From Candidatus Woesearchaeota archaeon (GTDB lineage Archaea; Nanobdellota; Nanobdellia; Pacearchaeales; GW2011-AR1), in contig CAYPLY010000001.1 of NCBI GenBank assembly GCA_964412025.1, forward strand, positions 4,797 to 68,796: a stretch of 64,000 nt of DNA. Reading direction: 5' to 3'. How positions within the stretch are numbered: the first letter of the stretch is position 1; each line of letters opens with the position of its first letter. A program made the position numbers and the translations under genes. Under the pieces are notes generated by a model. The model saw only the letters and a list, made by a program, of their open reading frames with translations. It had not been told where the DNA came from and did no database searches. Below, one piece after another: positions 24,259 through 61,952 of the stretch.

Positions 24259-27200
24259 TTAAATACACTTTGCTCTCCAAACATGAGTTATATACCAAGT
24301 AGTTCCAAATGGATTTGTGTATGTCTTTGAACTAATATCTACAGACTGCCCTCCATCATGAATAATTGTTATCCCTGGACTTGTTGATGCATAATTAGAG
24401 AAGATAGTTATGTGCTGATATTCTCTGTCATAACTTCCACTTCCCCCCCATATAATTAAATCCCCCTCTTTCAATCCGGTTTTCCATTCTGATTCTGGTA
24501 TCTCGGTGAAATCCGCTTTATCAAAAATATCTATTAGTTCCATTATAGCATCTCTATAAGGTATTGTATCGGATGTGCAGCTTTGAAATTGTGGGAGGGT
24601 ATCTGCTTCGATTAATACATTAGATACAAAAGTAGCGCAAACATTATCATAAACAATTGCTCCGTTTTCAACACGGGTTGTATCTTCTCCAAGCTTATTT
24701 TTTGCTATTGATAGTATTCTTTTGCCCGTTTGTGAATTATCACAACTTGAAGGAGCCTCCCCATTGTATAATCTAACTAATTCAAAATATTTCTCTTTAA
24801 CATTTCTAACATAGTTTGAGTCTCCGGTTGAACAGTCAGTATTCCATCCATTATATCCTCTTAAAGCATATTCCCATCCACTATACCTTTCAATAGGGTT
24901 AACACAAGTATAAATTTTACTTGAGGAACTATATGCTTCCTTTAATACTTGTGCTCCTATATTGATATTTAATTGTTCATTGGATAATAAAATAGATTTG
25001 CATTGGGTAATATCTGAGGGTAAACCTTTAGTTCCACAATGTATTGTGTTGATTTGCATTAATCCATTATCTCCCCCAGAAGTTACTGATCTACAAGATG
25101 ATTCTTGGACCATTATTGCAAGCAATAACAATTCATCCGGGATATTGCTACTGGCTGAACTAGCAGCACTTGTAATCCATTTAGCGTACTCATCACAATT
25201 TTCTCCACAAGAACATCTTAAATTAGTGTTTAAAACTCCCAGAGTAGACAATGCTTTCATTAAATTAGTCAGTTTTGTTAAATCTCTTCTTTGAAGCTGA
25301 GAATCAAGTGTATTTGTGTATGTTGTGGGAGTTTCTCCTTCTCCAAATGCTTCCGACATTTCTTGTATTTCTTCTGAGGAGTAATCAAACAGAATAGCAG
25401 CCCCCTTATATAAATCACTTTCTTTTAACATCGTTATAATATTTTTTTGCTCTTCGTTAAATCCAGGAGCAACATTTGACATACTTTGCCAAACACCTCC
25501 TCCCTCGAACATATCATCAATTTGCCAGAACCAATCTCCATTCTCATATTTGTAGTAAAGTTTTTTCATTGGTTCATAATCAACATCCTTAAATTTAACA
25601 GTGAATAGTCCTTCTTCATCTAGAGTCGTTGTTTCTAAAGTTTCATCCGAAAGTTCGGCGTTTTTATCTCCAATTATCTTGTTTATAAGTATTTTTAGTC
25701 CTCCAAGATAATCTCCATCTTTATCTTGTAGTGCAATTATAAGTTCTTCATTTTCTTCAGAAACATGATTTGTATATTCGGTTCCTAAACTATCTACATC
25801 ATACCATGGCACTGTTGTGCTACATGTAAATGCAAATTGCCATTTAGAGTTATAATATCTATAACACCTGTCATCTAACGTTAAAGGATTTTTATCATTG
25901 AAATGGAAATAGGGTGAAATATATTTTGCATTAAATTGTGCTTGAAGATTTTCGGGAGTGGAGGTTGTTGTCCCTCCTGTACTTGTTCCTGTAGATGTTC
26001 CTCCTGTTGTGGTTCCACTAACAATTGCTGCTTCCATTAAATTAACCGAATATTCTCCAATTGCAAGAGCAGAATATAACTGTCCTCTCATTAAAAATAA
26101 CTTTGCTTTTTGGTTGTTAAAGAATATTTTATCCCATAGTTCATCTATCATTTCTATTTTCTTTTTAACATATGTCTCATCTTTTATATCTTCTATAGCT
26201 TCCTTGAATTCTTTGGTTGTAAGATAATCTCCTTCATTGAACAGGACATTTTCATAGTTTGTTGCAGTTTGGCTTAGTATGTTATCTTCTATATTCAATG
26301 AGTGGACTATTTCTTTAACCTTATCTCTATCAAGCCAACACTTTACTTTTGTATCTCCACATACTCCCACAGGAGTCCATCTTGCTTCTTCTGGATCTTC
26401 CCATGATTCATCTGTTCCTTTTCCAGGATTGTCTGTTGCACACACTCTTATTATTCCGTTTTCGTATATCTTTGGGTCTAAAATTTCCTCTGCTGCGTTT
26501 TGAATATTAGGGTTTAACAAACTGTATAAACTTGCTGTTCCAGAAATACATTCCTCTTCTGTTTTTACCTGGGTTGTCGTTTGTTCTTGTATATATAATT
26601 CGCTCATGTAATTAACTGCAAAAGATGTTGAAACCTGCTCGAAATCACAGTTTTCTCTTCCGTTTACTGTAATGCATAAATATTTGAATCCGGATGGTGC
26701 TGTAAAGTCTGTACTGTTTGTTGCATATTCTCCTGCAGGAATATATCCTGATGCAACCTTTCTATCAAACATAGTATCTTGATAGTAAGAGCTTCCTGTT
26801 CCTTGTTTTAATGCAACCTGATAATAAACTCCAGTGTCCTTTCCTGCATATATATGGTATGAAACTTTATAATGGGAAGTAGGAGGGTTTGTTGCTGTGG
26901 TGTAGGGTATCTCCTGGAATTTTCCTGTGTATTGTGTTGGAGAGTCTGGGTCGGTTAAGCTATCAAGGAAATCTCCGCTTCCAGGGAAGATTACTGAAGG
27001 GAAGCTTTTGCAAACTTCAGCACCTACTTCATCTGTTGAACGTAGTTTGAATGCTTTCCAGGAGTTTTCAGCATAGAATCCTTTGAAAAATTCTATTGAA
27101 TCCTGGGCTTTTGAAAGTGCATCCTTTACCCCCAGATATTCTCCTCCTCCACGAGGGTTTTCTTTGAATATTGCACTTAATATCTTGGGTATGGTCAATT

Positions 27201-30200
27201 TTGCAAGAGGAAGGGCCTGTCTCCAGAAGAAATCACAAATATATATGCTATATACTTCATCACAAATTCCTACCGTTTCTCCAGTTTCTATATTTTGTTG
27301 AAGACAATCTCTGTAAGATTTTTGTACGCTTAAAAATCCATCCAATCCTGTTTGTACTCCTGATACACATATTGGAACAACTATTCCTTCTTTTGCATTA
27401 GGAAGACATAAAGCTATACTTCCTATTACTCCTGATTGTATAACATCCTGAACTGGATATGTTCCTCCCAAGTCGCATCTTGAGCTTGGACATACAACAG
27501 GATCACATACATTGAATAGTATTTGACATTCTTTAGGGGACATGAAATCCTGACATTGTACTGCAGGGGTTTGTACTGCAGGACTTCCAACATCATAGGA
27601 CACTCCTCCTATTCTAACTCTTCTTGCTCCACTTGCATATGCTCTTTGTGCTTCTTCAATTGATTGTCTTGCTTTTTCAACCATTGCAGAAGCTTCGTTT
27701 TCACTTAATCCTAAAACCTGATTTAATGCCTGTCCCGTTCTCAGGTTAATCATTTCACATTTATCATCTCTTGCCTCACTGAAAAAATCTTCCAACCCGT
27801 CCTGTCCAACATTACAAATCCAGAAAACTTCTATTCTTCCAGAATCGTCATAAGCCTTTAGAGTTTCAGAAGTAAGCATTGGTTTTGTTGCTGCATACCA
27901 TCCAGTTGCTTTATCAAGAGGAACTATTGCGGGATTTCCCTTATTTGGTTCTTCTTCATAGTATTTTAATTCAGCATTTTTATAGGTGTTTTTCAAGGAG
28001 TTTTTATCGTATCTTTGGAAGACTATATTGAAAGGGTTTTCCTGGACAACCCCCTCTTCTTTACCATTTTCTCGATACAAGGAAATTGTTTTTGTTGTTT
28101 CATCAATCTTGTAAGTTTGTTCCACTACCCCTTTATCTCCATCAAGTTTGTAAGTTAATAAGAATGTTCCAAATCCTCTTTCATCTTTTACAACATAAAC
28201 TGGTTTGTTTCTGTCTATTGAGGCACCAGTATAACCATTCTTAACATATTCTGTGTTTGCAAAAGTCTCTATATAGTAAACTGGAATTTCTGTTGTTTTT
28301 ATCCCTTTTAGGTTCCATACTCCGCTACTGGATAACCCACTTGTTTCTTTTAGAGAGATTTGAGAAGAATAAGTTTGGGAGTTAACCTGAACATCTCTTA
28401 GAACAGTATATAGTCTTTTTGTTGCTGTTTCTTTTAATTCATCACTGGAACTAGGATCGTTTAATATTTCAGAGTATAACCCTATTTCTTTAAGTTGGTC
28501 TGTGCTGTATACTCCTTCCTTAAATCCCCCCTCTGTAAGGATGTTGTTTATGTTTTGGAATTCAATTTTTTTTGTTTCTGATATTTCTTCGTTGTTTATT
28601 GCTTGTTGAATTGAACTTTCACTCAAAGTTTCTCGTGTTTTTTCAGAATAATCATTTATCCATCCTTCTTGGGTATTTGTTCCTTCTTCTGCTTTTTTTA
28701 TTCTTTGATTTTCAAATTGAATGTATTTGTAAGTTTCTTCAACTTGGGAATCTATTTCATCTGCATTTTTGTAAAAACAAGAATCTAGAGAAGGATATTC
28801 TCTCGGATTATCTCTGACTAGATTTTCACATTTTTCAGTCCATCCATTTTCTCCCTGCATTACTTTTTGCCTTGCAATGGATTTTCCTCCCATATTTGAG
28901 AGCATATTTTTGAATGTCAAGAAACCAGCTGTTCCAGTACATGCATATTTCCATACTTTAACAACTCCTGCTAAAGTGTTGGAGACTTTTTCTATGCTTT
29001 CTATTTGTTTGTTTAAGGTTTCAATTTTGCTTGCAGCTTTTTCAGGAGTTAGAGGGAAACTTCTTTTTTCAATTCCTACTTTGAAATTAAAATCTACCTC
29101 GCTATATTCAAAGTTCGTGTTTCCTCTTATTGCGACCTTTGCAGATTTTTCTAAGTTTATTTTCTTTAATGTGAAAACATATCCCCCGTATGGGAATGCT
29201 TTATCTATTTCAAGTTTCTTTGTGTCGCTTGCAAATCCTTTTTGCCAGGTGCTTTCATCAGCCACATAAATGTATACATCTGCAGATTCTGTTTCTAGAG
29301 AACTTAACATAATATATTCTTCTCTTTCAAGTTCATTTTCTCTAAATCCTTCCAGGTTTATCTTTTTGTCTTTTTCAAGTTCAAATGTTCTTGTTACCCC
29401 ATTTGGTCCTCTAACATAAAGCTCTACTCCATAATCTTCAAACTGAGGGTCATCTATTCCCAGAAGAGAAATTTCCTTAACTCTTCCATTAATTGAGACT
29501 TCCATTGTTGAAAGTGTATCGCTTGAGATTCTATAATCGTCCTCACAAATTGATAAAACAGTTGGATAAAGAGTAGACTCTTCATATCTTTCTTTAAATT
29601 CCTCACATAATTCCAATGCTGTTCTTTTTTTGTTTAATTTTATTGACAACGCAATTGCTTCATATAATGCTCTTTCTCCATACGTTTCAATAGAGCTCTC
29701 GGAATCTTTTTCTCCGGAGAAACTTGATCTAACAGTTTGGAAGTCATTCATTGCATTTTCGTAATATTGATTAAAAAGCTCATCAGGAGAATCGGTGTAT
29801 GTTGCTCTCTCAACAATAAGCTTGTTTTCTTTAGGGATTATTCTTGCTCCTATAATATGTTCGAAGAAATCGTCTAAGTTGGAAGGAGGATCGAAATTGC
29901 TATTTGTTGATAGAGTATAATTAGAAGGACAATTTAGATAATTATTGCATCCTGTTTCTGAATAAAAAGCTCCGTATTTTTTTAGAAGACTTGTTTTTGC
30001 AACTATATCGTCTGCACCCAATATAAGTATTGATTGTCCAAGGTCTGATTTTAATTCTTCAACAATTAAACCTGTCTTTTCATTTCCTTGTTTTATGGTG
30101 TATATAGTTCTTCCAAATAGTGAGAATATGGAAGTATCTCTTTCTAAGCTATATTCGTTTTCTTCTATTTTTAAAATCCCCTGGTCTGCTCCTTCTCCAA

Positions 30201-31686
30201 ATCCAACTATTGAGACTTCTTTTCCTTTAACGTCTTTGGGTAGGGAAACCCCTCCTGTTTTTGGATGCTCAAAAGGTATGAAGTAGAAATCTTCTCCAAC
30301 GACCGCCCACTTTCCTATAGTCATAGTAGCATGAGTAAATCCAGTTACTCCAGATACAATTGCATCATAAACTCCTGCTCCTGTTTTACCAGATTGTAAG
30401 GTGTTTGCGTATGAGTTTACAGAAGCAAGGTCGTTTGCATCGAGTCTTTCTTTGTGTTCCGGAGCAGCGAATAAATATACATATAAATCCTTGGATAATT
30501 CACTTCCGTCCCAAGAACCCACATATCCCAAATAAACTGATTTTTGCCCATCGGGAGTTTTGTATAACCAATCTCCCACCTCATACTCTCCTACTTCTCC
30601 ATCTATCTTCAGTTTAACTCTTGGAGATATTCCAAGAGATACTGTCTGAGGTTTATCTCCATTGCAATGTACTTTTACGCTTTGATAAAGTCCTTCTTTA
30701 TTTATGTCTTTTACATAACATTTATTATCAAGGAATTTTTCATTTTTTGCAACTTCAATGTAATCAGAACCTACCTTTAATTTTACTCTCGTATCTGGAT
30801 TAACTAAATCTTGTAATGTTACAGATAGTGTTGCAAGACAGGGGCTAAATCCGGGGAGATACAATTCATCGGATTTTTCTCCTTCATTTAAATGGAAGCT
30901 TGCATATTTTGATTTGCTGTAGGTTCTTCCTTCTCTTGAAAAAGTCCCAGAGCTTACTATTGTATCGTCGGAGTACATTACAATTTGGGCTCCTTCATTA
31001 TCTACAGATAATGCTCTTAGGTATCCTCTTCCTTCCCAAAAGCTGTATTGGATATACTTTTCATTCCATTCTTCATCACTCATTTCTTTAAGGTAAAAAT
31101 CTGTGTTTCCAACTCCAAATGCATTTTTTATGTCATATCTTACTTTTGCTGTAAGATTTCCCTGGACATATTCTGGCATTTGAGATTCGTTTGGTTGTTT
31201 TTTTATGGTTATTACAACATAACCTAAATCACTTAATATTGGGGAAGTTAACACCCCTTCTTGATTTGAAGTTCCAAGTGCAGCTTTAGAAGGGAAATAT
31301 CCAACACTTCTAACTTGCTCGGAAAGTTCTTGTTGTGAGGGAGCAAAGCTCAGATAATCTATTGCTTCTATTTCTATTAAGGGATTAATTTGAGTTGCTC
31401 CTAATTGGCAATAAACCTGAACATCTTGTTCTTCCAACAAATCGCTTCTTACAACGGCAGGAGTGCATCCAAAAGGAACTATTTGTATTAATAAGTCAGT
31501 TCCTCCTTCTTCACACATAGATTTATCAAACTGTAGGCTACTTCCACTTCCAAATGCTCCTATTCCTATTGTGTTTGAATATTGCATTCCGCTTGTTACT
31601 GCACGAGTATATGCTGAAACAGATGAAATTAGTATTAATCCTACAAGTAGTATTAGCATTCCAATTAAGTGTCTTTTATTTATCAT
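24259..31686 (-). CDS. giant (2475 aa) secreted Cys-rich protein with C-terminal lytic transglycosylase (SLT/GH23-like) and CHAP amidase/peptidase domains
   Basis: Sec-type signal MINKRHLIGMLILLVGLILISSVSA. C-terminal region LLLAIMVQESSCRSV...GLMQIN...YALRGYNGW (SLT catalytic Glu, GLMQ and Y-x-GW motifs). It is followed by NVCATFVSNV ... GDLIIWGG ... YQHITIF (CHAP Cys/His). A Thr/Gly linker TTGGTSTGTSTGGTTTSTP precedes the C-terminal module. Confidence 0.8.
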   Translation of the reverse strand: MINKRHLIGMLILLVGLILISSVSAYTRAVTSGMQYSNTIGIGAFGSGSSLQFDKSMCEEGGTDLLIQIVPFGCTPAVVRSDLLEEQDVQVYCQLGATQINPLIEIEAIDYLSFAPSQQELSEQVRSVGYFPSKAALGTSNQEGVLTSPILSDLGYVVITIKKQPNESQMPEYVQGNLTAKVRYDIKNAFGVGNTDFYLKEMSDEEWNEKYIQYSFWEGRGYLRALSVDNEGAQIVMYSDDTIVSSGTFSREGRTYSKSKYASFHLNEGEKSDELYLPGFSPCLATLSVTLQDLVNPDTRVKLKVGSDYIEVAKNEKFLDNKCYVKDINKEGLYQSVKVHCNGDKPQTVSLGISPRVKLKIDGEVGEYEVGDWLYKTPDGQKSVYLGYVGSWDGSELSKDLYVYLFAAPEHKERLDANDLASVNSYANTLQSGKTGAGVYDAIVSGVTGFTHATMTIGKWAVVGEDFYFIPFEHPKTGGVSLPKDVKGKEVSIVGFGEGADQGILKIEENEYSLERDTSIFSLFGRTIYTIKQGNEKTGLIVEELKSDLGQSILILGADDIVAKTSLLKKYGAFYSETGCNNYLNCPSNYTLSTNSNFDPPSNLDDFFEHIIGARIIPKENKLIVERATYTDSPDELFNQYYENAMNDFQTVRSSFSGEKDSESSIETYGERALYEAIALSIKLNKKRTALELCEEFKERYEESTLYPTVLSICEDDYRISSDTLSTMEVSINGRVKEISLLGIDDPQFEDYGVELYVRGPNGVTRTFELEKDKKINLEGFRENELEREEYIMLSSLETESADVYIYVADESTWQKGFASDTKKLEIDKAFPYGGYVFTLKKINLEKSAKVAIRGNTNFEYSEVDFNFKVGIEKRSFPLTPEKAASKIETLNKQIESIEKVSNTLAGVVKVWKYACTGTAGFLTFKNMLSNMGGKSIARQKVMQGENGWTEKCENLVRDNPREYPSLDSCFYKNADEIDSQVEETYKYIQFENQRIKKAEEGTNTQEGWINDYSEKTRETLSESSIQQAINNEEISETKKIEFQNINNILTEGGFKEGVYSTDQLKEIGLYSEILNDPSSSDELKETATKRLYTVLRDVQVNSQTYSSQISLKETSGLSSSGVWNLKGIKTTEIPVYYIETFANTEYVKNGYTGASIDRNKPVYVVKDERGFGTFLLTYKLDGDKGVVEQTYKIDETTKTISLYRENGKEEGVVQENPFNIVFQRYDKNSLKNTYKNAELKYYEEEPNKGNPAIVPLDKATGWYAATKPMLTSETLKAYDDSGRIEVFWICNVGQDGLEDFFSEARDDKCEMINLRTGQALNQVLGLSENEASAMVEKARQSIEEAQRAYASGARRVRIGGVSYDVGSPAVQTPAVQCQDFMSPKECQILFNVCDPVVCPSSRCDLGGTYPVQDVIQSGVIGSIALCLPNAKEGIVVPICVSGVQTGLDGFLSVQKSYRDCLQQNIETGETVGICDEVYSIYICDFFWRQALPLAKLTIPKILSAIFKENPRGGGEYLGVKDALSKAQDSIEFFKGFYAENSWKAFKLRSTDEVGAEVCKSFPSVIFPGSGDFLDSLTDPDSPTQYTGKFQEIPYTTATNPPTSHYKVSYHIYAGKDTGVYYQVALKQGTGSSYYQDTMFDRKVASGYIPAGEYATNSTDFTAPSGFKYLCITVNGRENCDFEQVSTSFAVNYMSELYIQEQTTTQVKTEEECISGTASLYSLLNPNIQNAAEEILDPKIYENGIIRVCATDNPGKGTDESWEDPEEARWTPVGVCGDTKVKCWLDRDKVKEIVHSLNIEDNILSQTATNYENVLFNEGDYLTTKEFKEAIEDIKDETYVKKKIEMIDELWDKIFFNNQKAKLFLMRGQLYSALAIGEYSVNLMEAAIVSGTTTGGTSTGTSTGGTTTSTPENLQAQFNAKYISPYFHFNDKNPLTLDDRCYRYYNSKWQFAFTCSTTVPWYDVDSLGTEYTNHVSEENEELIIALQDKDGDYLGGLKILINKIIGDKNAELSDETLETTTLDEEGLFTVKFKDVDYEPMKKLYYKYENGDWFWQIDDMFEGGGVWQSMSNVAPGFNEEQKNIITMLKESDLYKGAAILFDYSSEEIQEMSEAFGEGETPTTYTNTLDSQLQRRDLTKLTNLMKALSTLGVLNTNLRCSCGENCDEYAKWITSAASSASSNIPDELLLLAIMVQESSCRSVTSGGDNGLMQINTIHCGTKGLPSDITQCKSILLSNEQLNINIGAQVLKEAYSSSSKIYTCVNPIERYSGWEYALRGYNGWNTDCSTGDSNYVRNVKEKYFELVRLYNGEAPSSCDNSQTGKRILSIAKNKLGEDTTRVENGAIVYDNVCATFVSNVLIEADTLPQFQSCTSDTIPYRDAIMELIDIFDKADFTEIPESEWKTGLKEGDLIIWGGSGSYDREYQHITIFSNYASTSPGITIIHDGGQSVDISSKTYTNPFGTTWYITHVWRAKCI

Positions 31687-34416: not shown

Positions 34417-34728
34417 ATGAAAATTCCAAAAGTGACGAAAAGATTTTGTCCTTATTGTAAGAAAAAGACAGAACAAAAAATAAAATTAGTTGGAACGGGA
34501 TTCCAGAGAGGAACACTTACTAGAGGTTCAAAGTATAGGGCTAAATTAAGAGGGTTAGCAAGAGGAATAGGAAATAAAGGAAAATGGGGTTCAAAACCTG
34601 CCGCTTCTAAGTTTAAACGAAAATCTAAAACAACTAAAAAAACAAATATAATGTACACGTGCAAAGTCTGCAATAAATCTAAATACCAGAAGAAAGGTAT
34701 CAGACTAAGCAAACAAGTACAGGAGTAA
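34417..34728 (+). CDS. rpl44e: 50S ribosomal protein L44e
   Basis: C4 zinc ribbon CPYC...CKVC. Basic, 103 aa, with a typical L44e N-terminus MKIPKVTKRFCPYCKKKT. Confidence 0.85.
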   Translation: MKIPKVTKRFCPYCKKKTEQKIKLVGTGFQRGTLTRGSKYRAKLRGLARGIGNKGKWGSKPAASKFKRKSKTTKKTNIMYTCKVCNKSKYQKKGIRLSKQVQE

Positions 34729-34744
34729 ATAAAAATTAATTAAA

Positions 34745-35407
34745 ATGGCACAGGCAAAAAAGAAAAAAAGGTTTTTCGATGTAGAAATGCCTTTAATAAA
34801 CAAACAAACTCAAATCTTTGCTTATGAACTTTCAGAACTTGAAGGAAAATTCATAAAATACGATTTAACAAGAATATTAAGAGGTAAAAGCATACTTATG
34901 CAATTTAAGATTTCTATAAAGGAGCATCAGGCTATTGCTTATCCAAGAGGAATTCTTCTTATGCCTTATTTTTTAAGAAGGATGATAAGGAAAGGAACAG
35001 ATTATGTTGAAGATTCATTTACTGCAGATTGTAGGGATGCAACTCTTAAAATAAAGCCATTCTTAATAACCAGAAGAAAGGTTTCTAAGAGAGTAAGAAG
35101 AGGATTAAGAGATAAAGCTAGAGAAGAGATAAAGAGATATATTAAAGATAAACCTTCTCAGAGGATATTTGAAGATATACTTAAGAATAAACTTCAAAAG
35201 GAGTTAAGTTTGTTGTTGAAGAAGATTTATCCTCTTTCATTGTGTGAAATCAAATTTGTAGATATTGATAAGGATTTAGAAGTGAAGGAAAAATCAAAAG
35301 AAGAGAAAGAAAATAAAGAAGAAAACCCTGAAAAAGACAATAAAGAAAAGAAAGAGAAAAAATCAAAAAAGAAAGAAGAAAAAGAAGTGGATTCTGAAGA
35401 AAACTAA
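34745..35407 (+). CDS. rps3ae: 30S ribosomal protein S3Ae (S1e) with a K/E-rich C-terminal tail
   Basis: The pattern DLTRILRGKSILMQFKI...YFLRRMIRKGTDYVED...ATLKIKPFLIT matches conserved S3Ae blocks (..LGDLTG.F....KL.FK.. / Y.RS.VRR). Confidence 0.65.
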   Translation: MAQAKKKKRFFDVEMPLINKQTQIFAYELSELEGKFIKYDLTRILRGKSILMQFKISIKEHQAIAYPRGILLMPYFLRRMIRKGTDYVEDSFTADCRDATLKIKPFLITRRKVSKRVRRGLRDKAREEIKRYIKDKPSQRIFEDILKNKLQKELSLLLKKIYPLSLCEIKFVDIDKDLEVKEKSKEEKENKEENPEKDNKEKKEKKSKKKEEKEVDSEEN

Positions 35408-35659: not shown

Positions 35660-36289
35660 ATGGTAGAAAGAGGGGAAATTGCCTTCAATAAAAAGGTTAT
35701 ACGTGAAGCAAAAAAAAGACATGGAGATGAAATTGAGTCTTGGAAAAAGGATTTAGAAGAAGCAATAATTACTAGCTATAATTTCATAAAAAAATATCCA
35801 AAAAAATCTGAAAAGAAATTCGAATCTGTTAAATTATTATTAGAAGATGGTCTGGCTTTATTGGAAGATAGAACCTATAAAGAAAATTTCTCGGAGGGAA
35901 GAGAAATATTTTATTATATGAAGGAAGCTATATCCAAAAAAGAAAGCAAAGTTGTTTTATCTAAAGAGATAGATAAATATAGAAAAAACCTTGCATTGAG
36001 GGGAGGGGTGTTAGTTGAGAAGTCTCATTTAAAACAAGATTATGGAAATAAGGATTCAGATATTGTGCGTTATTATGATAAACATGTTGGAAATATAGCT
36101 GTAGGATTAGAGAAATCAATAACTGCTGTTTCAGCCTTATCAATGGCTTTGGGAATTGCATTGGGTTATCCTGCTTTGACCGGAAATGCCATAGCGAATA
36201 CTTTTGCAGGTTCTTTTAGTTACGGGGCCATACTTTTTATGGTTGGACTTCTTGGAGTATTTTTATCTAATAGGAATAAGTTTAAGTGA
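35660..36289 (+). CDS. hypothetical protein with C-terminal transmembrane helices
   Basis: 209-aa ORF. The C-terminus AVSALSMALGIALGYPALTGNAIANTFAGSFSYGAILFMVGLLGVFL is hydrophobic. No recognisable family. Confidence 0.5.
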   Translation: MVERGEIAFNKKVIREAKKRHGDEIESWKKDLEEAIITSYNFIKKYPKKSEKKFESVKLLLEDGLALLEDRTYKENFSEGREIFYYMKEAISKKESKVVLSKEIDKYRKNLALRGGVLVEKSHLKQDYGNKDSDIVRYYDKHVGNIAVGLEKSITAVSALSMALGIALGYPALTGNAIANTFAGSFSYGAILFMVGLLGVFLSNRNKFK

Positions 36290-36905: not shown

Positions 36906-37463
36906 TTACTTATCAATTATCTCAACTTTTCTTCCATCAGAGAGTATTTTTGCAATTTCTCTTGGAAGATTAGCAATATCTCCTTTTTGATAGGGCCCCA
37001 TTTTTGTTTCATCTGCTCCAAGAAATTCTTCAACATCATCAAGGAAAACTACTAGATCATTATTTTTTGTTACCTCTCCTTTAATCCCACTTAAAAGTTC
37101 ATTTAGTTTCTTTTCTGAAGAATCCATGCAACTCATTAGTCCTTCAAACAGCTCTTTTTCTATTGCAAGCATATTTTCAAAGTCTTGTTTTGAGATTCCG
37201 GTTTCTGTTGCTATTAATACCAGATTAAGTATCTTCTTCCTTCTTCTTATTATCAATTCTTTAAACAGGGTTGTTGCATTTTCTAATTGTTTTTTTGTTT
37301 TAATTATAACATCTGAAAAATCCTCGCTATCTTTTGCAGCAATCTCTTTTTTATCTTTTATATATTTAGCAACCTCAGATATGAAATTCTTAGGTATTTG
37401 CTGGAGTTGTTCCGAATATCTCTCTTTTCTTGCAGCCTCATATATATCATTGTATGTTATCAT
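36906..37463 (-). CDS. probable GINS complex subunit (Gins51/Gins15-like)
   Basis: The N-terminal helical pattern YNDIYEAARKERYSEQLQQIPKNFISEVAKYIKD resembles the archaeal GINS A-domain (..ER.s.eLq.ip.dFy.ev..Y..). 185 aa. Confidence 0.45.
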   Translation of the reverse strand: MITYNDIYEAARKERYSEQLQQIPKNFISEVAKYIKDKKEIAAKDSEDFSDVIIKTKKQLENATTLFKELIIRRRKKILNLVLIATETGISKQDFENMLAIEKELFEGLMSCMDSSEKKLNELLSGIKGEVTKNNDLVVFLDDVEEFLGADETKMGPYQKGDIANLPREIAKILSDGRKVEIIDK

Positions 37464-37533: not shown

Positions 37534-37872
37534 TTATTTATAACTGAATTTCTCTTTAAACCCAAAGTAGTATATGTTCATCTTATGCATTTTCATATCC
37601 TCAGTGTTTCTTGAATTAAATTTTCCTCCTCTTTTCATCCAGTAATCTAGGATCTGTTCTGAGGTAAATATTTCTCCATTTGGGGAGACTACAGAAAGAC
37701 TTTTGTCCACATTTCCAGGGTAATCTTTGTCTTCAAGCATACCAAATCCTTCTTCTTCTAATTTTGTACAACTATGAATAATCTGTTTGTTTAAGTGGCT
37801 TGAATTATTCCTCTCATCAAAACTATATGCCCATAGAATTTTTTTCCTTAATGTATTCTCACTTTCTTTCAT
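37534..37872 (-). CDS. hypothetical protein (112 aa)
   Basis: Last gene of a tightly packed three-gene minus-strand unit (38535 to 37534). No recognisable motif. Confidence 0.45.
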   Translation of the reverse strand: MKESENTLRKKILWAYSFDERNNSSHLNKQIIHSCTKLEEEGFGMLEDKDYPGNVDKSLSVVSPNGEIFTSEQILDYWMKRGGKFNSRNTEDMKMHKMNIYYFGFKEKFSYK

Positions 37873-37874
37873 CT

Positions 37875-38225
37875 TTACAAATCTATAACACCTTCTTTTG
37901 TCAGAGCTGCAAATCTTATTCCAACTGGAAGGTTAATTAATGCAGATATAAGTGCCATATGTTCTTTTCCTTCCCCACTTGCTATTGAAAGTGCCACTTC
38001 AGTTCCATCTATTTTATTTTTAAGTTTTTTAAGAAATTCTTCTCTTAGGTCTTTTATTTTTGCCTTTAAATCTACTTTTATGAATTCAAATTTTTTTTCG
38101 TGTGTAAAACCTGTTCCAAACTCATCCCCTATAACAATTATTTTGTCCCATTCTCCATGCTTCATAAGTCCAGAAACCTGTCCCCAGCTTCCTTTCCCAG
38201 TAGATAATAATGCTACTAATTCCAT
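37875..38225 (-). CDS. hypothetical protein (116 aa)
   Basis: ORF with 2-nt spacing to its neighbours. Sequence ...ALSIASGEGKEHMALISALINLPVGIRFAAL; family not recognised. Confidence 0.5.
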   Translation of the reverse strand: MELVALLSTGKGSWGQVSGLMKHGEWDKIIVIGDEFGTGFTHEKKFEFIKVDLKAKIKDLREEFLKKLKNKIDGTEVALSIASGEGKEHMALISALINLPVGIRFAALTKEGVIDL

Positions 38226-51269: not shown

Positions 51270-53018
51270 TTACTCAAGTATTGCCTTAATTCTTCTTACT
51301 CCACTAGATGAGGATTCTTCTTTTGTTATCTTGAATTTTCCAAGTTCACAGGTGTTTTTTACATGGGGTCCAGTACATATTTCTTTAGAACATTCTCCTA
51401 TAGCGTAAACAGATACAATTTCTCCATACTTATGCTCAAATACTCCAGATATCCCTCTTTTTTTTGCTTCATCCAGGGTCATTTCCTCTCTTATAACCTC
51501 ACATCCTTTTTGTATGTTTAAATTTACTTCTTTTTCTATCTCTTTTATTTCTTCATCAGTTAATTTTCTTGGAAAATTGAAATCAAATCTCAATCTTTCA
51601 GCATTTATATTAGAGCCCTTTTGGTGTATTGAATTATCATTGAGTATTTTTCTTATTGCTGCTAAAAGCAGGTGAGATGCGGTATGTAAGCGAGTTGTTT
51701 CTCTGCTATTATCTGCAAGTCCAGATTTGAATTTTCCTTCTGCAGCAGTTCTTGATAGTTCTTGATGTACTTTACATTCTTCATCAAATTCTTTTCTTGA
51801 GAATCTTATTTTTCTTGTTTTACATTCTTCTTCAATCATTTCTACAGGGAAACCATATGATTGGTACAAAAGGAAGGAATCTTTGCAGGAAATTTCTTTT
51901 TTATCTCTGGTTATTTTATCAAAAATGTTTATCCCTCTTTCAAGAGTTTGTCTGAACTTATTTTCTTCTCTCTCTAGTTCTGTTATTATATTATTTCTCC
52001 TCTTTTTTAGTTCAGGATAATCCGGATATATCTCTATGAGAGTATCTACAAATTTTGAACTGAAATTTTCCTTTATTCCAATTGATTGACCATATCTTAC
52101 TGCTCTTCTTATTAGTCTTCTTAGAATATATCCTTGTTCTGTGTTACCAGGTACAACTCCATCGGATATTATAAATATAGCTGCCTTAAGGTGGTCTGCT
52201 ATTACCCTCATCTCTCTTTTGTTTTTATTATAATCTTTTTTGGACATTTTTTCAATCTCTTTTATGATTGGAAAAAATGATTCTGTTAGATAGTTATCTT
52301 TTAAATTATTTAAAACTGCAATTGTTCTTTCAACCCCTCCTCCATAATCTATATTTCTTTGTTTTGCAGGTATAAATTTACCTTCTTCATTTTTTGTGAA
52401 CTCCATTAAAACATTATTTCCTATCTCTACCCAATTATTATCATGAGGATTAAATTTTTCTGGGGCTTTATTTTTCCCTGACCAGTAAAATATCTCTGTA
52501 TCAGGACCACAAGGTCCCGTTTTACCTGCAGGTCCCCACCAGTTATCTTGTATTTTTGCTATTCTTTCTTTTTTTATTCCCAGAGATTTCCAGACTTCTA
52601 TTGCTGTTTTGTCTTCATTTATATTTTGTTTTTTATCTCCTGAAAAGACTGATACTGCTAGATTTTCTTTTGGTATCTCTAGTATCCTTGTCAGAAATTC
52701 ATATGTAAACTTTATTGCTTCTTCTTTCCAGTAATCTCCTAAGCTCCAATTTCCCATCATTTCAAAAAAAGTATGATGTATTTCATCTCCTACTTCTTCA
52801 ATATCTCCTGTTCTTATGCATTTTTGAATACTCACAAGTCTTTTTCCAAGAGGATGTGATTGTCCTAGAAGAAAAGGAACTAGAGGATGCATACCTGCTG
52901 TAGTAAATAATACTGTTGGGTCATTTTCTGGAATTAAGGAAGAGTTTGGAACCTCTTTATGGTTTTTTGATTTAAAAAATTCTACATACTTTTTAATCAG
53001 TTCTTTTCTATATATCAT
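51270..53018 (-). CDS. alaS: alanyl-tRNA synthetase, short (582 aa) bacterial-type form lacking the C-Ala domain
   Basis: N-terminus FFKSKNHKEVPNSSLIPENDPTVLFTTAGMHPLVPFLLG. Editing-domain Zn motif HTASHLL...C.GPHV. Confidence 0.85.
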   Translation of the reverse strand: MIYRKELIKKYVEFFKSKNHKEVPNSSLIPENDPTVLFTTAGMHPLVPFLLGQSHPLGKRLVSIQKCIRTGDIEEVGDEIHHTFFEMMGNWSLGDYWKEEAIKFTYEFLTRILEIPKENLAVSVFSGDKKQNINEDKTAIEVWKSLGIKKERIAKIQDNWWGPAGKTGPCGPDTEIFYWSGKNKAPEKFNPHDNNWVEIGNNVLMEFTKNEEGKFIPAKQRNIDYGGGVERTIAVLNNLKDNYLTESFFPIIKEIEKMSKKDYNKNKREMRVIADHLKAAIFIISDGVVPGNTEQGYILRRLIRRAVRYGQSIGIKENFSSKFVDTLIEIYPDYPELKKRRNNIITELEREENKFRQTLERGINIFDKITRDKKEISCKDSFLLYQSYGFPVEMIEEECKTRKIRFSRKEFDEECKVHQELSRTAAEGKFKSGLADNSRETTRLHTASHLLLAAIRKILNDNSIHQKGSNINAERLRFDFNFPRKLTDEEIKEIEKEVNLNIQKGCEVIREEMTLDEAKKRGISGVFEHKYGEIVSVYAIGECSKEICTGPHVKNTCELGKFKITKEESSSSGVRRIKAILE

Positions 53019-56895: not shown

Positions 56896-57900
56896 ATGAA
56901 AAAGTTAAAAATGTCTGGGAATAACTCGGCTGTAGAGAATATTCTAAAAAAATCTGGAAAAGTGAATGGAGAGGTTATTGAGGGTTATGAATTTAATAAT
57001 GGAGTTGATTATGAAAAAATAATTGATAGCTTTGGCTCAACCGGTTTTCAGGCTTCAAATCTTAGCCAGGCAATAGGTATTGTTAATGAGATGATTAAGG
57101 TTAAATCTAAAATTTATATAGGTTATACCTCAAATATGGTTAGTTCAGGTTTAAGAGAAGTAATAAGATATTTAGTTGAGCATAAAAAAGTGGATGTTTG
57201 TGTTACAAGCGGGGGAGGTTTTGAAGAAGATATAATTAAATGCTTAGGAGATACTGTTTTGGGGGATTTCAGGCTTCCGGGAAAAGAACTTAGAGAGAAG
57301 GCAATAAACAGAATAGGGAATTTACTTGTCCCAAATAATAATTATATCTCTTTTGAGGAGTTTTCAATGCCTATCCTTGAAGAAATTTATAATGAACAAA
57401 AGACAACTGGAAAGGTTTATACTCCTTATGAGATAATCTGGAAATTTGGAGAAAAAATAAACAATGAAAAGAGCATTTGTTATTGGGCATGGAAGAACAA
57501 AATACCTATATATTGCCCGGCAATTCTTGATGGGAGTTTTGGGGATATGGTTTATTTCTTTAAATATAAACATGAGGATTTTAAGGTAGATATTGCTGAA
57601 GAAACAAGGATGTTAAACGAATCCACTACCGGACTAAAAAAATCAGGAGTTTTGATTCTTGGGGCCGGAATTGTTAAACATGCCATATTAAATGCTCATC
57701 TTTATAGGAATGGGGCAGATTATGCCGTTTATATAAACAATGCTCAGGAATTTGATGGAAGTGATGCAGGGGCTCTTCCAGAAGAGGCAGTATCTTGGGG
57801 AAAGTTAACTCCCGAATCAAAAAGAGTTAAGGTTTATGGAGACGCAACAATCTTATTTCCATTGTTGGTTGCAAAGACATTTGCAAAAAACTCTATATAA
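56896..57900 (+). CDS. dys: deoxyhypusine synthase
   Basis: VTSGGGFEEDIIKCLG and KIPIYCPAILDGSFGDM blocks characteristic of DHS. 334 aa. Confidence 0.85.
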   Translation: MKKLKMSGNNSAVENILKKSGKVNGEVIEGYEFNNGVDYEKIIDSFGSTGFQASNLSQAIGIVNEMIKVKSKIYIGYTSNMVSSGLREVIRYLVEHKKVDVCVTSGGGFEEDIIKCLGDTVLGDFRLPGKELREKAINRIGNLLVPNNNYISFEEFSMPILEEIYNEQKTTGKVYTPYEIIWKFGEKINNEKSICYWAWKNKIPIYCPAILDGSFGDMVYFFKYKHEDFKVDIAEETRMLNESTTGLKKSGVLILGAGIVKHAILNAHLYRNGADYAVYINNAQEFDGSDAGALPEEAVSWGKLTPESKRVKVYGDATILFPLLVAKTFAKNSI

Positions 57901-57933
57901 AAGTTTATATATATCTTCTTAATACATTTTTTT

Positions 57934-59025
57934 ATGGACGAAAATGAAGAAATAGGTGATTTGTTCGTTCCCCATAATGAACAAGAGAAGATAATCATTG
58001 AAAAAGATTTTATGGATGTTCTTAAGATGGTTGCACCCGGAACATCTATACGTGTTGCAATGGATGATTTGCTTAATGCAGGGATGGGAGCATTGATAGT
58101 TATTGATAATGGGAATTTGTCTTCCGCGTATCAAAAGGGTTTTTCAATTCATTCTAAGTTTAGCCCTCAAAAACTTGTTGAACTTGCTAAGATGGATGGG
58201 GCGATTATTCTTTCAGGAAATGTTAAAAAGATATTGTATGCGAACTCTTTTCTTTCTCCCAATTCCGAGATAAATACTCGTGAAACAGGGACAAGACATA
58301 AATCTGCAGAAAGGACAGCAAAACAGACAGGAGCGATAGTCATTGCAATCTCTGAGAGAAAAAAGAAAATTACAATTTATCAGGGAGATAAAAGGCATGA
58401 ACTTAAGGAAAGTTCAGAGATATTGAGGAGAGCTGCAGAAACTTTACAGATTTTGGAGAAACAAAAAGAGAGTTTCAATGAAGCTATAACTCACCTTAAC
58501 CTTATGGAATTACAAAGAATAGTTACTGTTAAAGATGTTTGTGGAGTTATACAGAGATTTGAGATAATAAAAAGAATCTCAGAGATTGTTAAAAGGTATT
58601 TGATTGAGCTTGGAAGGGAAGGAGCAATAGTTAGTATGAGTTTAAAGGATTTAATAAGGGGGTTAGATAAAGAGGAAGAATTGCTTCTTAGAGATTATTT
58701 TGGATCCAATTCTGCTTATGCTGAGAAAGTTCTTGAGAAGATGGATTTTGATTTTCTTTTAGAACCTCTTAATATATCAAGGATGCTTTTTGAAGAGTTG
58801 CACGATAAACAAATATCTCCTAAGGGATTAAGGATATTAAGCAAGACGAATATTCTAGAGAGATATATTAGTTCTTTGATAGCACATTTTCAATTTTTAG
58901 ATAAGATTCTTCTTGCTAATGATGAAGAATTGCTTAGAGTATTTCAAAACGAGGGAATGCTAGCATTTTTTAAGGAAGAAATATATAGTCTTAGAGAGAA
59001 ACTTGTTGTTGGAAAGTCGATATAA
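57934..59025 (+). CDS. disA: DisA-like diadenylate cyclase (DAC domain followed by a helical/HhH-like C-terminal region)
   Basis: DAC hallmark motifs are present: DGA in KMDGAIILSG and RHR-type in GTRHKSAERTAKQTGAIVIAISE. The 363-aa length equals that of bacterial DisA. Confidence 0.75.
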   Translation: MDENEEIGDLFVPHNEQEKIIIEKDFMDVLKMVAPGTSIRVAMDDLLNAGMGALIVIDNGNLSSAYQKGFSIHSKFSPQKLVELAKMDGAIILSGNVKKILYANSFLSPNSEINTRETGTRHKSAERTAKQTGAIVIAISERKKKITIYQGDKRHELKESSEILRRAAETLQILEKQKESFNEAITHLNLMELQRIVTVKDVCGVIQRFEIIKRISEIVKRYLIELGREGAIVSMSLKDLIRGLDKEEELLLRDYFGSNSAYAEKVLEKMDFDFLLEPLNISRMLFEELHDKQISPKGLRILSKTNILERYISSLIAHFQFLDKILLANDEELLRVFQNEGMLAFFKEEIYSLREKLVVGKSI

Positions 59026-59026
59026 A

Positions 59027-60067
59027 ATGTTAACGGAAAAACAGATAGAAGAGATAAAAAATCATCTTGATAAGGCTCAAAATCCAGTTTTCTTTTTTGA
59101 TAATGATCAGGATGGACTTTGTAGTTTTTTGTTGTTGCAAAAGTATCTGGGCAGGGGTAAGGGTTTTCCAATTAAAACCTCTCCAGCTTTGACTAAAGAT
59201 TATCTTAGAAAAGTTGAGGAGTTTAATGCAGATTATATATTCATATTAGATAAGCCAGAAGTTTCTGGAGAATTTATATCTGAAATTGAGAAAGTTAATA
59301 TACCTATAGTTTGGATTGATCATCATACTACAGATAGGGATAAGATATCTAAATATGTGAATTATTACAACCCATTATTTAACAAGGATAAGAGTAATGA
59401 ACCTGTAACTTATCTTTGTCAAAAGATAACAAATAAAAAAGAAAATTTGTGGATTGCGGTTGTTGGATGCATATCCGATAATCTAGTCCCAGATTTTTAT
59501 CAAGATTTTATGAAAAACTATCCTGATTTATGTAAGGACAAGAAAGATGCGTTTGAGATATTTTATGGTTCGGATATTGGAAAGATTGCAAGAATTATTG
59601 GTTTTGGATTAAAAGACAAAATAAGCAATGTTATTAGCATGGTTAAATTTCTAATATCGTGCAATAGTCCTTATGATTTTTTGGAAGAGAACAATAAAAA
59701 TAAATCAATACATAAGAGGTTTCAGGAGGTTGATAAAAAATATCAAAAGATTTTGAATAAAGCTAAAAGAATTTCAACATCCAAAAAACTTTTATTTTTC
59801 AAATATGAGGGGGATACAAGTATGAGCTCAGATATTGCAAATGGTTTAAAATATCTTTTTCCAGATAAATTTATTGTTGTTGTTTATACAAAGGGCTATA
59901 AGGCGAATGTTTCTGCAAGAGGAGAGGACATTAAAACGATTATTTTGTCTGCAATAGAAGGTCTTGAGGGTTCAACAGGAGGAGGACATGAAAATGCTGT
60001 TGGTGCCCAAATTAATAAAGAGGATGTCGGAGAGTTTGAGAAGAGAGTTAGAAGGTTAATTTTGTAA
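59027..60067 (+). CDS. DHH/DHHA1 family phosphoesterase (candidate c-di-AMP/nanoRNA phosphodiesterase)
   Basis: DHH motif in VWIDHHTTD and the DHHA1 motif GGGHENAVGA. The frame is open from 59003 and overlaps disA by 23 nt. The ATG at 59027 lies 1 nt after the disA stop. Confidence 0.75.
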   Translation: MLTEKQIEEIKNHLDKAQNPVFFFDNDQDGLCSFLLLQKYLGRGKGFPIKTSPALTKDYLRKVEEFNADYIFILDKPEVSGEFISEIEKVNIPIVWIDHHTTDRDKISKYVNYYNPLFNKDKSNEPVTYLCQKITNKKENLWIAVVGCISDNLVPDFYQDFMKNYPDLCKDKKDAFEIFYGSDIGKIARIIGFGLKDKISNVISMVKFLISCNSPYDFLEENNKNKSIHKRFQEVDKKYQKILNKAKRISTSKKLLFFKYEGDTSMSSDIANGLKYLFPDKFIVVVYTKGYKANVSARGEDIKTIILSAIEGLEGSTGGGHENAVGAQINKEDVGEFEKRVRRLIL

Positions 60068-60470: not shown

Positions 60471-61952
60471 TCAGTAACTTCTACCGATATAAACAATTTT
60501 TGTTGCTGGTTTCCCACAGAATAAACACTTTCCTGAAGCCTTTTCATTTTTGTTTGCAAGAGTTCCTCTGACATCTCCTGAGAATTCTTTTTCTATTATC
60601 TCTGCGCAATGTATTCCATTTTTGTCTGTTGAACAAAAATTTATTCTTGCCATCTTTCCTGAGGAGAGGGCATCCTTTATCTCCTTTTTTGTTGAGCATG
60701 ATTGTATTCTATTATTCATAAATTTGTCTGCTTTTTCTCTTAATCTTTTATCAAAATCTATTCCTAAAGAGTTTATCTTCTTTATATCTGATATTTTCAT
60801 TTTTTCTTTATTTTTTGTATCTCTTGTAAAGATAATTATCTCATTATTCTTCAATTCTTTTTCACCCAGCTCAATTCTAAACGGAACTCCCTTTAACTCC
60901 CAAATATGATATTTTTCTCCAGGACGTTTATATTCTCTTTCATCTATTTCTGCTTTAATATTTTCTTTTTCTAATTTATCTAAGATTTCTTTTGATTTAT
61001 TCATTATTTTTTCTTTATTTTCTGTGTTGAATATAGGGATTATAATTACTTGTATAGGCGATAGGGAGTAAGGCAAAATCATCCCAGAATCGTCTCCATG
61101 AGTTGCAATAACTGATGCTAATATCCTAGATACAGCAGGACCATAAGCCGTTGTCCAAAGATACTCTTCTTTTTCTTCTTTATTTTTGAATGTTGCATCA
61201 AACGCTTTTGAGAATTTTTGTCCCATTAAATGTGTTGAAGGTTGTTGAATTAATTTTCCATCTGGCATAAAACAATCTGAACCTACAGTATATTCTGCCC
61301 CGGCGAATTTATCCCACTCGGGTCTTTTCATTGGTAAAAAAGGTATTCCGTAAATTTGATGCATTACTTTTTCTGTTGTGTCTATATCCTCTTGAACCTG
61401 AGCTTCTGCTTCTTCTTTTGTTGCAAAAGCATCATGGCATTCAATCCATATAAATTCTCTCCCTCTTATTAATGGGCGGGTCGCTTTAGTATCCATTCTG
61501 AAGACTGAACCTCTTTGGTATAGTTTCATTGGCAAGTCTCTATGACCTCTTATCCAAAGTTTAAACATTGGAGTATATAGTGTTTCGGAAGTCGGTCTTA
61601 AAGCAAGTTCTTTATTATCCCCTATATCTTTTAACCAAAATACTTCTGGAGTAAATCCCTGAACATGTTCTGACTCCTTCATAAGATTTTCTTTAGGTAT
61701 TACAGAAGGCATAAATGTTGGTAAGTGATGTTTTTTTTGAAGTTCTTTTTCAAGATGTTCAAACATATTCTCTATAGTTAATGCAGCCCAGGGGCGTATT
61801 ATTGTGAATCCTTTAACGTCTAACCTTAAATCTACCAGTTCTGCTTTTTCAATAACTTGTGTAAACCATTCAGAAAAATTCTCTTGTTTTTTTACAGTTA
61901 TTCCCTCTCGGGATTTTTCCTGATTTTCTTCTTTAAACTTCTTTTCTTTCAT
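60471..61952 (-). CDS. proS: prolyl-tRNA synthetase, archaeal/eukaryotic type
   Basis: Class II core and a C-terminal zinc-binding tail CLFCGKPATKIVYIGRSY typical of archaeal ProRS. 493 aa. Confidence 0.9.
   Translation of the reverse strand: MKEKKFKEENQEKSREGITVKKQENFSEWFTQVIEKAELVDLRLDVKGFTIIRPWAALTIENMFEHLEKELQKKHHLPTFMPSVIPKENLMKESEHVQGFTPEVFWLKDIGDNKELALRPTSETLYTPMFKLWIRGHRDLPMKLYQRGSVFRMDTKATRPLIRGREFIWIECHDAFATKEEAEAQVQEDIDTTEKVMHQIYGIPFLPMKRPEWDKFAGAEYTVGSDCFMPDGKLIQQPSTHLMGQKFSKAFDATFKNKEEKEEYLWTTAYGPAVSRILASVIATHGDDSGMILPYSLSPIQVIIIPIFNTENKEKIMNKSKEILDKLEKENIKAEIDEREYKRPGEKYHIWELKGVPFRIELGEKELKNNEIIIFTRDTKNKEKMKISDIKKINSLGIDFDKRLREKADKFMNNRIQSCSTKKEIKDALSSGKMARINFCSTDKNGIHCAEIIEKEFSGDVRGTLANKNEKASGKCLFCGKPATKIVYIGRSY

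Follow-up and report, generated by a model that had tools for sequence, protein, structure and literature searches.

Signalling by c-di-AMP (cyclic di-adenosine monophosphate) has so far been studied in archaea through DacZ-type cyclases, in Euryarchaeota only, and the phosphodiesterase side has become clear only recently. A 2023 review gave the degrading enzymes as unknown and named NrnA-like proteins of arCOG01566 as candidates (PMC10249747). The one archaeal enzyme that we found characterised as a c-di-AMP phosphodiesterase, PyaPDE, is built as TrkA_N-DHH-DHHA1, according to work cited in PMC12699388. In Deinococcus radiodurans the true RecJ is inactive on c-di-AMP, while an NrnA-like paralogue is active (PMC11229311). 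Archaeal RecJ homologues have been proposed to be near-universal replication and repair factors, typically encoded among translation genes (PMC3307487). Here we analyse 64 kb of DNA from a Candidatus Woesearchaeota archaeon (contig CAYPLY010000001.1, positions 4,797 to 68,796; the window), in which a gene for a DisA-family diadenylate cyclase (disA) is followed almost without a gap by a gene for a DHH/DHHA1 phosphoesterase (the DHH gene).

Both open reading frames (ORFs) are present where the sequence-only reading had placed them, and each has thousands of homologues, far beyond chance. Window positions and lengths in amino acids (aa) are:

57934..59025, plus strand: disA, DisA-family diadenylate cyclase, 363 aa (NCBIfam NF010009, Pfam DAC and DisA-linker, PDB 3c1y)
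59027..60067, plus strand: DHH/DHHA1 phosphoesterase, compact and RecJ-clade, 346 aa (Pfam DHH and DHHA1; start from homologue alignment; RecJ-type best matches)

The sequence-only reading had proposed that these genes form a c-di-AMP synthesis and turnover cassette, perhaps transferred as a unit. We lean, with somewhat better than even confidence, towards a different picture, in which a cyclase of a DisA subfamily has as its block neighbour a compact phosphoesterase of the RecJ clade, whose housekeeping role does not depend on DisA, and the two happen to be co-transcribed here. The two genes would be functionally separable residents of a conserved housekeeping block in a Pacearchaeota-like DPANN archaeon. 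DisA, a member of a divergent subfamily, would make c-di-AMP from two ATP, and the DHH protein would be a Mn2+-dependent exonuclease whose substrates are single strands of DNA or RNA, or else short oligonucleotides, its housekeeping role being independent of DisA. The pair would then owe its operon to position and would not be a cassette dedicated to signalling.

The affinity of the DHH protein is central to this picture. All of its NCBIfam matches at E<=0.01 were to RecJ-type models (RecJ_archaeal 54 bits, recJ 45, RecJ_Meth 36 and GAN 20). The models recJ TIGR00644, RecJ_archaeal and RecJ_Meth matched 20 of 20 members of the family, and no NrnA or GdpP-type NCBIfam model matched any of these 20 at E<=1. 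Searching PDB sequences with phmmer and a family profile gave significant matches to archaeal RecJ/GAN-type chains only, namely P. furiosus RecJ (5x4h), M. thermautotrophicus RecJ-Cdc45 (7bhi) and M. jannaschii RecJ2, with E values of 1e-9 to 1e-7. T. kodakarensis GAN (5ghr) followed at 0.025, and the NrnA-like chains 9r7o and PggH 7d62 were non-significant at 0.2-0.35. The AlphaFold model of the protein is good (predicted local distance difference test, pLDDT, 85; predicted template modelling score, pTM, 0.79), and a Foldseek search of the PDB with it ranked M. thermautotrophicus RecJ-Cdc45 first (7.6e-18), then MjaRecJ2, PfuRecJ, GAN and bacterial RecJ (1e-16 to 1e-9). The top 12 were all RecJ proteins. 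NrnA, Pde2, PggH and the D. radiodurans RecJ-like protein came in at 1e-9 to 1e-7. In JGI annotation the family goes under 'single-stranded DNA-specific DHH superfamily exonuclease'. Judged by sequence and by modelled structure, the DHH protein groups with RecJ/GAN/Cdc45-type nucleases and not with NrnA or GdpP. The sequence-only reading had placed it with nanoRNases and c-di-AMP phosphodiesterases, and had itself named a RecJ/GAN grouping as a result that would refute this; NCBIfam, PDB and Foldseek all returned the RecJ/GAN grouping.

With the archaeal RecJ proteins (RecJ-Cdc45 7bhi/7bjq, RecJ2 6tvv/7ykv, PfuRecJ 5x4h and GAN 5ghr) the DHH protein shares the DxDxDG, D, DHH and D motifs, the GGGH motif of DHHA1, a long interdomain helix and a gene position among translation-related genes, but at 346 aa it falls about 100 aa short of their 430-470 aa, and the identity is 12-20%. 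These proteins are its best matches both by sequence (E 1e-9 to 1e-7) and by structure (E 1e-18 to 1e-13). The helix spans residues 226-249 in the AlphaFold model. A long interdomain helix is typical of the RecJ core, though it may not be peculiar to it. With NrnA/DhhP/Pde2/CnpB and GdpP it shares the two-domain DHH/DHHA1 core with its DHH and GGGH motifs, an NrnA-like size (~310-340 aa) and adjacency to a diadenylate cyclase, as expected of a turnover enzyme. It differs from these enzymes in giving no significant sequence match (E >=0.2) and Foldseek scores 9-10 orders weaker than those with RecJ, and in being kept in relatives without an adjacent cyclase. Pfam found only DHH and DHHA1 in its 346 aa, with no TrkA_N, PAS or GGDEF domain, so that it has neither the TM-PAS-GGDEF portion of GdpP nor the TrkA_N domain of PyaPDE. 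The phosphoadenosine phosphate (PAP, pAp) phosphatase of Methanothermococcus thermolithotrophicus (8a8k, 316 aa) is also a compact archaeal DHH/DHHA1 protein, with 18% identity in the Foldseek alignment. Unlike the RecJ chains, it was picked up by neither the phmmer nor the profile sequence search, and nothing evident connects its function, the hydrolysis of pAp during sulfate assimilation, with the neighbourhood of the DHH gene.

That the second gene encodes a DHH/DHHA1 phosphoesterase with intact IDHHTTD and GGGH motifs, as first read from the sequence, held up throughout. The Pfam models DHH (PF01368, 32 bits) and DHHA1 (PF02272, 35 bits) both scored above cutoff, a superfamily-wide feature that includes RecJ. 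The claimed 23-nucleotide (nt) overlap with disA holds for the in-frame TTG at 59003 and not for the real gene. The first residue is a methionine matching ATG 59027 in 18 of 19 aligned homologues, with a 1-residue extension in one and a 7-residue extension in another, and from this alignment we take ATG 59027 to be the true start. The stop codon of disA (TAA, 59023-59025) is then followed by 1 nt and the ATG, with zero overlap. The motifs of the protein are as follows.

59099..59116, plus strand: DHH motif I, D-N-D-Q-D-G, residues 25-30, a RecJ-like DxDxDG metal-binding motif; D25, D27, D29 and G30 invariant in 78/78 sequences
59318..59326, plus strand: DHH motif III, D98-H99-H100 (IDHHTTD); invariant in 78/78
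59978..59989, plus strand: GGGH motif of DHHA1, residues 318-321; G319, G320 and H321 invariant, G318 in 75/78

The 78 sequences scored comprised 48 from loci with disA and 30 from loci without it. The catalytic residues D25, D27, D29, G30, D75, D98, H99, H100, D151, R298 and G319-H321 were invariant in both groups. Mean column entropy was 1.05 in the group without disA and 1.17 in the group with it, which argues that selection on the DHH protein is not relaxed when disA is missing. No residue was convincingly constrained in the disA-carrying lineages alone, and the sequences from loci without disA were, if anything, the more conserved.

The position of the two genes was examined in two samples, one of 80 DPANN species genomes centred on the DHH gene (the best 80 of at least 571 confirmed matches, each locus extending up to 6 kb on each side as the contig allowed) and one of 80 metagenome loci centred on disA, some near-identical to each other, of which 71 were evaluable. 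In the window the gene order is TFE-alpha (54219), rhomboid (55094), SpoIIM (55970), dhs (56896), disA (57934) and DHH (59027), followed on the opposite strand by the prolyl-tRNA synthetase (ProRS) gene (60471-61952). The two immediate neighbours of the pair are:

56896..57900, plus strand: dhs, deoxyhypusine synthase, upstream neighbour (Pfam PF01916, 377 bits; synteny)
60471..61952, minus strand: ProRS, convergent neighbour downstream of DHH (Pfam tRNA-synt_2b, HGTP_anticodon and ProRS-C_1; synteny)

The DHH-centred sample shows this to be a conserved block, TFE-rhomboid-SpoIIM-dhs-[slot]-DHH-ProRS, made up of housekeeping genes of which two encode membrane proteins. Most loci keep dhs upstream and ProRS convergent downstream, and the wider TFE-rhomboid-SpoIIM-dhs order is retained wherever it is visible. 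The slot between dhs and DHH is variable. It holds disA at 47 of the 80 loci, directly adjacent to DHH in 45 and with intervening genes in 2, while disA is absent from 30 and 3 could not be judged. Of the 77 evaluable species, 30 thus have the DHH gene in the same place on the chromosome but no disA at the locus, and in 13 of the loci lacking disA dhs directly abuts it (~1-60 nt). On a rough neighbour-joining tree of the DHH proteins, loci with and without disA are interleaved and several sister pairs are of opposite state, which suggests that disA was repeatedly lost or gained while the DHH gene stayed.

In the disA-centred sample DHH lies directly downstream in 59 of the 71 loci, an inserted gene or inversion separates the two in 7, and in 5 there is no DHH gene in the 1-5 kb of downstream sequence examined; two of these five read dhs, disA, small ORF, ProRS. 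As disA follows dhs in the great majority of these loci, it is tied to dhs about as tightly as to DHH, and adjacency is a property of a block with one variable slot. Adjacency is therefore not independent evidence for a functional link between disA and DHH. The joint transfer that had been suggested is excluded because the DHH gene is an archaeal-type resident of the block, a core gene beside which disA occupies the variable slot. The setting of the DHH gene between dhs and ProRS might be compared with the translation-gene surroundings of archaeal RecJ, as a weak parallel.

Other genes also use these positions. Besides the 13 loci where dhs abuts DHH, about nine of those lacking disA have in the slot a ~350-aa gene with the pattern M..KF(I/V)LSK..L.EQV..L..LGLK(I/V)SYSYKTN... 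Its positions, by locus, are:

L012 4890-5978, L013 894-1946, L017 3193-4230: ~350-aa slot gene
L021 1441-2568, L054 4899-5978, L064 1979-3016: ~350-aa slot gene
L069 4253-5314, L073 4767-5807, L076 4926-5978: ~350-aa slot gene

By eye this looks like a pyridoxal phosphate-dependent decarboxylase of the ornithine/arginine/carboxynorspermidine type, an identity that, if true, would fit a polyamine-hypusine link with dhs. At two disA-centred loci (L128 6060-6515 and L139 6206-6676) a conserved ~150-aa ORF (MKPKFVYHGS.KK..G.KL.PK.AKD...) stands between disA and ProRS instead of DHH. Some relatives have insertions between disA and DHH (L103 1070-1878, minus strand; L034 4550-5509, minus; L068 5099-5818, plus; L148 6204-7001, plus). 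By eye, the translations of the inserted genes suggest a HEPN/nucleotidyltransferase-like (toxin-antitoxin-like) pair, Lrp/AsnC-like and TrmB-like regulators, and a 265-aa protein without recognised function. No c-di-AMP-related gene or receptor was recognised among these insertions by eye, and no domain search of them was run.

The transcription signals also bear on whether the two genes belong together. Upstream of disA the window carries one promoter-like element.

57897..57911, plus strand: ATAAAAG (B recognition element (BRE)-like, overlapping the dhs stop) and behind it TTTATATA (TATA box), some 30 nt ahead of the disA ATG (sequence reading)

Of the 31 related loci listed, most have the same element, ATAAAAG-[CT]TTA[TA]ATA, at the same distance upstream of disA, with the strongly conserved consensus [AC]ATAAAAG[CT]TTATATA at a fixed ~30 nt from the start codon. 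This spacing points to leaderless or very short-leader mRNAs in this lineage, and we infer that the disA element is an archaeal BRE/TATA promoter of such an mRNA. Within -40 to -24 of the DHH start, a corresponding CAAAACCTTATATAA element is present in 33 of 43 disA-carrying loci whose spacer exceeds 40 nt, in 9 of 12 with a spacer of 16-40 nt and in 19 of 32 loci without disA, against a background frequency of 8.5%. It is absent from all 38 tight junctions (-4 to 15 nt), the class to which the window belongs. Overall, DHH has its own promoter-like element in about 60% of disA-carrying loci. The window's DHH gene, with no such element and 1 nt after the disA stop, is probably transcribed from the TATA-box promoter of disA, and hence probably co-transcribed with it. 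The idea of an operon thus survives for the window as likely co-transcription; the dedicated signalling cassette that went with it is not supported, the DHH protein being RecJ-type and its gene kept without disA at 30 of 77 evaluable loci. In some loci without disA the DHH gene lies close behind dhs with a Shine-Dalgarno-like GGAGG.

The upstream gene was correctly read as a DisA-family cyclase of DisA-like length with a helical spine. It scored 324.4 bits against the DisA equivalog model NF010009 (NCBIfam; cutoff 201; model positions 6-329 of 357), and residues 19-353 aligned to T. maritima DisA (PDB 3c1y) with E 6.9e-57. Three regions can be distinguished.

58057..58392, plus strand: DAC catalytic domain, residues 42-153 (Pfam PF02457, 91 bits)
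58402..58785, plus strand: DisA linker, helical spine domain, residues 157-284 (Pfam PF10635, 108 bits)
58801..59022, plus strand: C-terminal helical domain, residues ~290-363, counterpart of the helix-hairpin-helix (HhH) domain of bacterial DisA (aligned to T. maritima domain 3)

In the spine, long helices are predicted at residues 162-194, 199-241 and 244-269 (pLDDT 72-90). The AlphaFold model of the whole protein, built on a 17-sequence alignment, has a mean pLDDT of 66, falling below 50 over residues 61-119 so that the DAC domain is poor, and was used neither for a fold search nor for the fold of the C-terminus. Of the two catalytic motifs claimed at the outset, DGA is where it should be: D88-G89-A90 (nt 58195-58203) lies in an MDGAI aligned with the MDGAI of T. 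maritima DisA. The second, claimed as RHR, reads R121-H122-K123 (nt 58294-58302), the window's GTRHKSAER standing against GTRHRTAER at the same alignment position. DGA and R-H are invariant within the clade, and K123 is found in 17 of 17 close homologues. With DGA and R-H intact, and lysine a conservative replacement, cyclase activity is plausible, and the window DisA most likely makes c-di-AMP from two ATP.

The C-terminal domain also departs from the bacterial pattern. Both G-h-G hairpins are changed relative to T. maritima, with 'TNILERYISSLIAHF' instead of 'ARIPLSIGYNVVRMF' and 'FQNEGMLAFF' instead of 'VEGIGEKRARAI', NEGM standing at the GIG position of bacterial DisA. Pfam HhH gave no match in this region, and the structure model (mean pLDDT 66) is too weak to show the fold. 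A C-terminal segment, FFKEEIYxLREK, is strongly conserved inside the clade. In a homologue library of 1.84 billion representatives, which carries no taxonomy, DisA matched 1229 clusters at E<=1e-3 and 211 at E<=1e-30, and motifs were compared across 150 representatives. Among the clusters, formed at 50% identity, the nearest ~25 (40-64% identity to the window protein) have RHK, RHQ or RHM, and the second HhH hairpin, G(I)G..RA, is missing from them. Canonical clusters with RHR and G(I)G..RA first appear at 41% identity or less, and G(I)G..RA occurs only in RHR-type representatives. On these comparisons the window DisA is a distinct, old subfamily and not a recent import.

Set beside bacterial DisA (T. 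maritima TM0200, 3c1y), the window protein has the same N-terminal DAC domain with DGA, helical spine and C-terminal helical domain, a similar length (363 against 357 aa), and passes the curated DisA model. It differs in having RHK for the bacterial RHR, in the loss of both HhH G-h-G hairpins, in its identity of no more than 41% to canonical RHR-type DisA, in its DPANN host and in its neighbours, which are dhs and a RecJ-like gene and not radA. As the G-h-G hairpins are absent, DNA scanning by this clade is doubtful, and so is regulation by branched DNA of the kind found in bacterial DisA. Both the RHK motif and the missing HhH signature put the automatic label in question, and the name 'DNA integrity scanning protein' may not fit the DPANN clade. 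Of the by-products of the analysis, these features of the DisA subfamily, which a large group of ultrasmall DPANN archaea carries, are the most interesting; both genes otherwise belong to known families of enzymes. NCBI annotation already gives these DPANN proteins as DisA. Our literature search found no description of DisA in DPANN archaea, and did not cover every domain-architecture survey.

Several observations weigh against treating the two genes as separable. The absence of disA was counted at the level of the locus (<=6 kb each side), and such genomes may carry a cyclase elsewhere. Coupling is tight, with a gap of -4 to +15 nt and a mode of 0-2 nt, in 38 of 93 non-redundant junctions with disA, and together with direct adjacency in 59 of the 71 disA-centred loci this would fit a functional link. 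The bit scores with the RecJ, GAN and HAN models are far below the curated cutoffs (360 for RecJ_archaeal, 397 for recJ, 550 for RecJ_Meth and 850 for GAN), which places the protein outside every characterised RecJ subfamily. It has the size of an NrnA or pAp phosphatase and is probably without further domains of the kind seen in GAN and in bacterial RecJ, where there is an OB fold, and 8a8k falls inside the RecJ range in the Foldseek search (E 2e-14, TM 0.60/0.65). With this compact size and this similarity, a small-substrate role, maybe including pApA, is possible. We thus file the DHH protein as an unclassified compact branch of the RecJ clade, which takes in bacterial COG0608 and archaeal arCOG00427; its substrate could be either long single strands or short oligonucleotides; a role as a c-di-AMP or pApA hydrolase is possible but unsupported.

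The explanation that draws most on these points is the dedicated operon, in which the DHH protein would hydrolyse c-di-AMP and/or the pApA derived from DisA's product. The 1-nt spacer, the lack of a separate promoter-like element in the window, the intact catalytic motifs, the frequent adjacency and the likeness to 8a8k, an archaeal enzyme of small substrates, all fit it, as does the precedent of bacterial stand-alone DHH/DHHA1 enzymes of similar size that degrade c-di-AMP or pApA (PMC11229311). We nevertheless consider it unlikely. Every sequence test and the top structural matches point to the RecJ clade, and the true RecJ in that same study has no c-di-AMP activity (PMC11229311). The DHH gene persists in the same position, under unrelaxed selection, where disA is missing; it has its own TATA-like element at some 60% of junctions with disA; the linkage of disA to dhs is about as consistent as its linkage to DHH, which reduces the pairing to block synteny; and the known archaeal phosphodiesterase is built differently (PMC12699388). 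Less probable still is a fuller version in which a DisA without the HhH signature signals via c-di-AMP in a large DPANN lineage and the compact RecJ-clade DHH/DHHA1 protein, translationally coupled to it in ~40% of lineages, hydrolyses c-di-AMP or pApA. If true, no c-di-AMP phosphodiesterase of the RecJ clade would precede it, it would be the first archaeal c-di-AMP system described that is based on DisA, and it would widen the enzyme repertoire for c-di-AMP turnover.

The RecJ affinity that counts against a turnover operon favours two further possibilities, both of which we regard as improbable. The DHH protein might be this lineage's equivalent of Cdc45/GAN, a structural part of the CMG helicase (Cdc45-MCM-GINS), its position beside disA being incidental. 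Its top structural match is M. thermautotrophicus RecJ-Cdc45, more than 570 species genomes of DPANN archaea carry its gene, all archaea have been proposed to have an essential RecJ homologue, typically encoded amid translation genes (PMC3307487), and the window itself holds a GINS51 homologue (36906-37463, minus strand; Pfam Gins51_C, E 1e-10). At 346 aa, however, the protein is about 100 aa shorter than GAN/RecJ-Cdc45 (445-470 aa), so that the CMG-interacting insertion is probably missing; the GAN model gives 20 bits only, and the five disA-centred loci with no DHH gene in the downstream sequence examined also speak against such a role. We hold a DNA-damage or replication-fork module to be, if anything, slightly more improbable. 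In such a module DisA would be the sensor of stalled forks or of branched DNA, which the RecJ-like nuclease transcribed with it would resect or process, in parallel to bacterial radA-disA. A RecJ-type protein whose gene is tightly juxtaposed with disA in the window would fit this; archaeal RecJ paralogues take part in fork repair (PMC5717133), and bacterial DisA works at stalled forks with RadA and RecA, according to work cited in PMC10249747. In this DisA clade, though, the counterpart of the DNA-binding HhH domain has no G-h-G hairpins, which makes DNA scanning doubtful, DHH is kept without disA and disA is found without DHH, and the conserved block contains no further repair gene. Functionally separable neighbours, a divergent cyclase and a housekeeping RecJ-clade enzyme, therefore remain the explanation we prefer. 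They also carry a caution for annotation: a DHH/DHHA1 gene adjoining a cyclase need not be its phosphodiesterase, since here it belongs to the RecJ clade and is kept when the cyclase is lost.

The remainder of the window fits its DPANN assignment. It has a G+C content of 32% and contains the archaeal genes for TFE-alpha, deoxyhypusine synthase, archaeal-type ProRS, GatD and the GINS51 homologue, and the named homologues of the DisA and DHH proteins come from metagenome-assembled genomes of Pacearchaeota, Woesearchaeota and Nanoarchaeota. No second RecJ paralogue was found in the 64-kb window. Near GINS51 there are three small ORFs without a Pfam match (35660-36289, 37534-37872 and 37875-38225); the first of these, of 209 aa, was considered as a degenerate RecJ/Cdc45 and rejected (hhalign probability 0.2%, zero PDB matches). 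The genes at 34417-35407, also near GINS51, we take to be ribosomal protein genes, the one next to the 209-aa ORF probably being S3Ae. A 582-aa ORF at 51270-53018 (minus strand) has what is presumably an alanyl-tRNA-synthetase-like N-terminus (..TTAGMHPLVPFLLG..); it is much shorter than a typical AlaRS and may be a truncated or split one. Finally, the window contains two giant ORFs, one of 4645 aa (3628-17565, plus strand) and one of 2475 aa (24259-31686, minus strand), the latter with a signal or transmembrane-like segment at its N-terminus. Both are probably giant surface proteins of a kind common in DPANN genomes.

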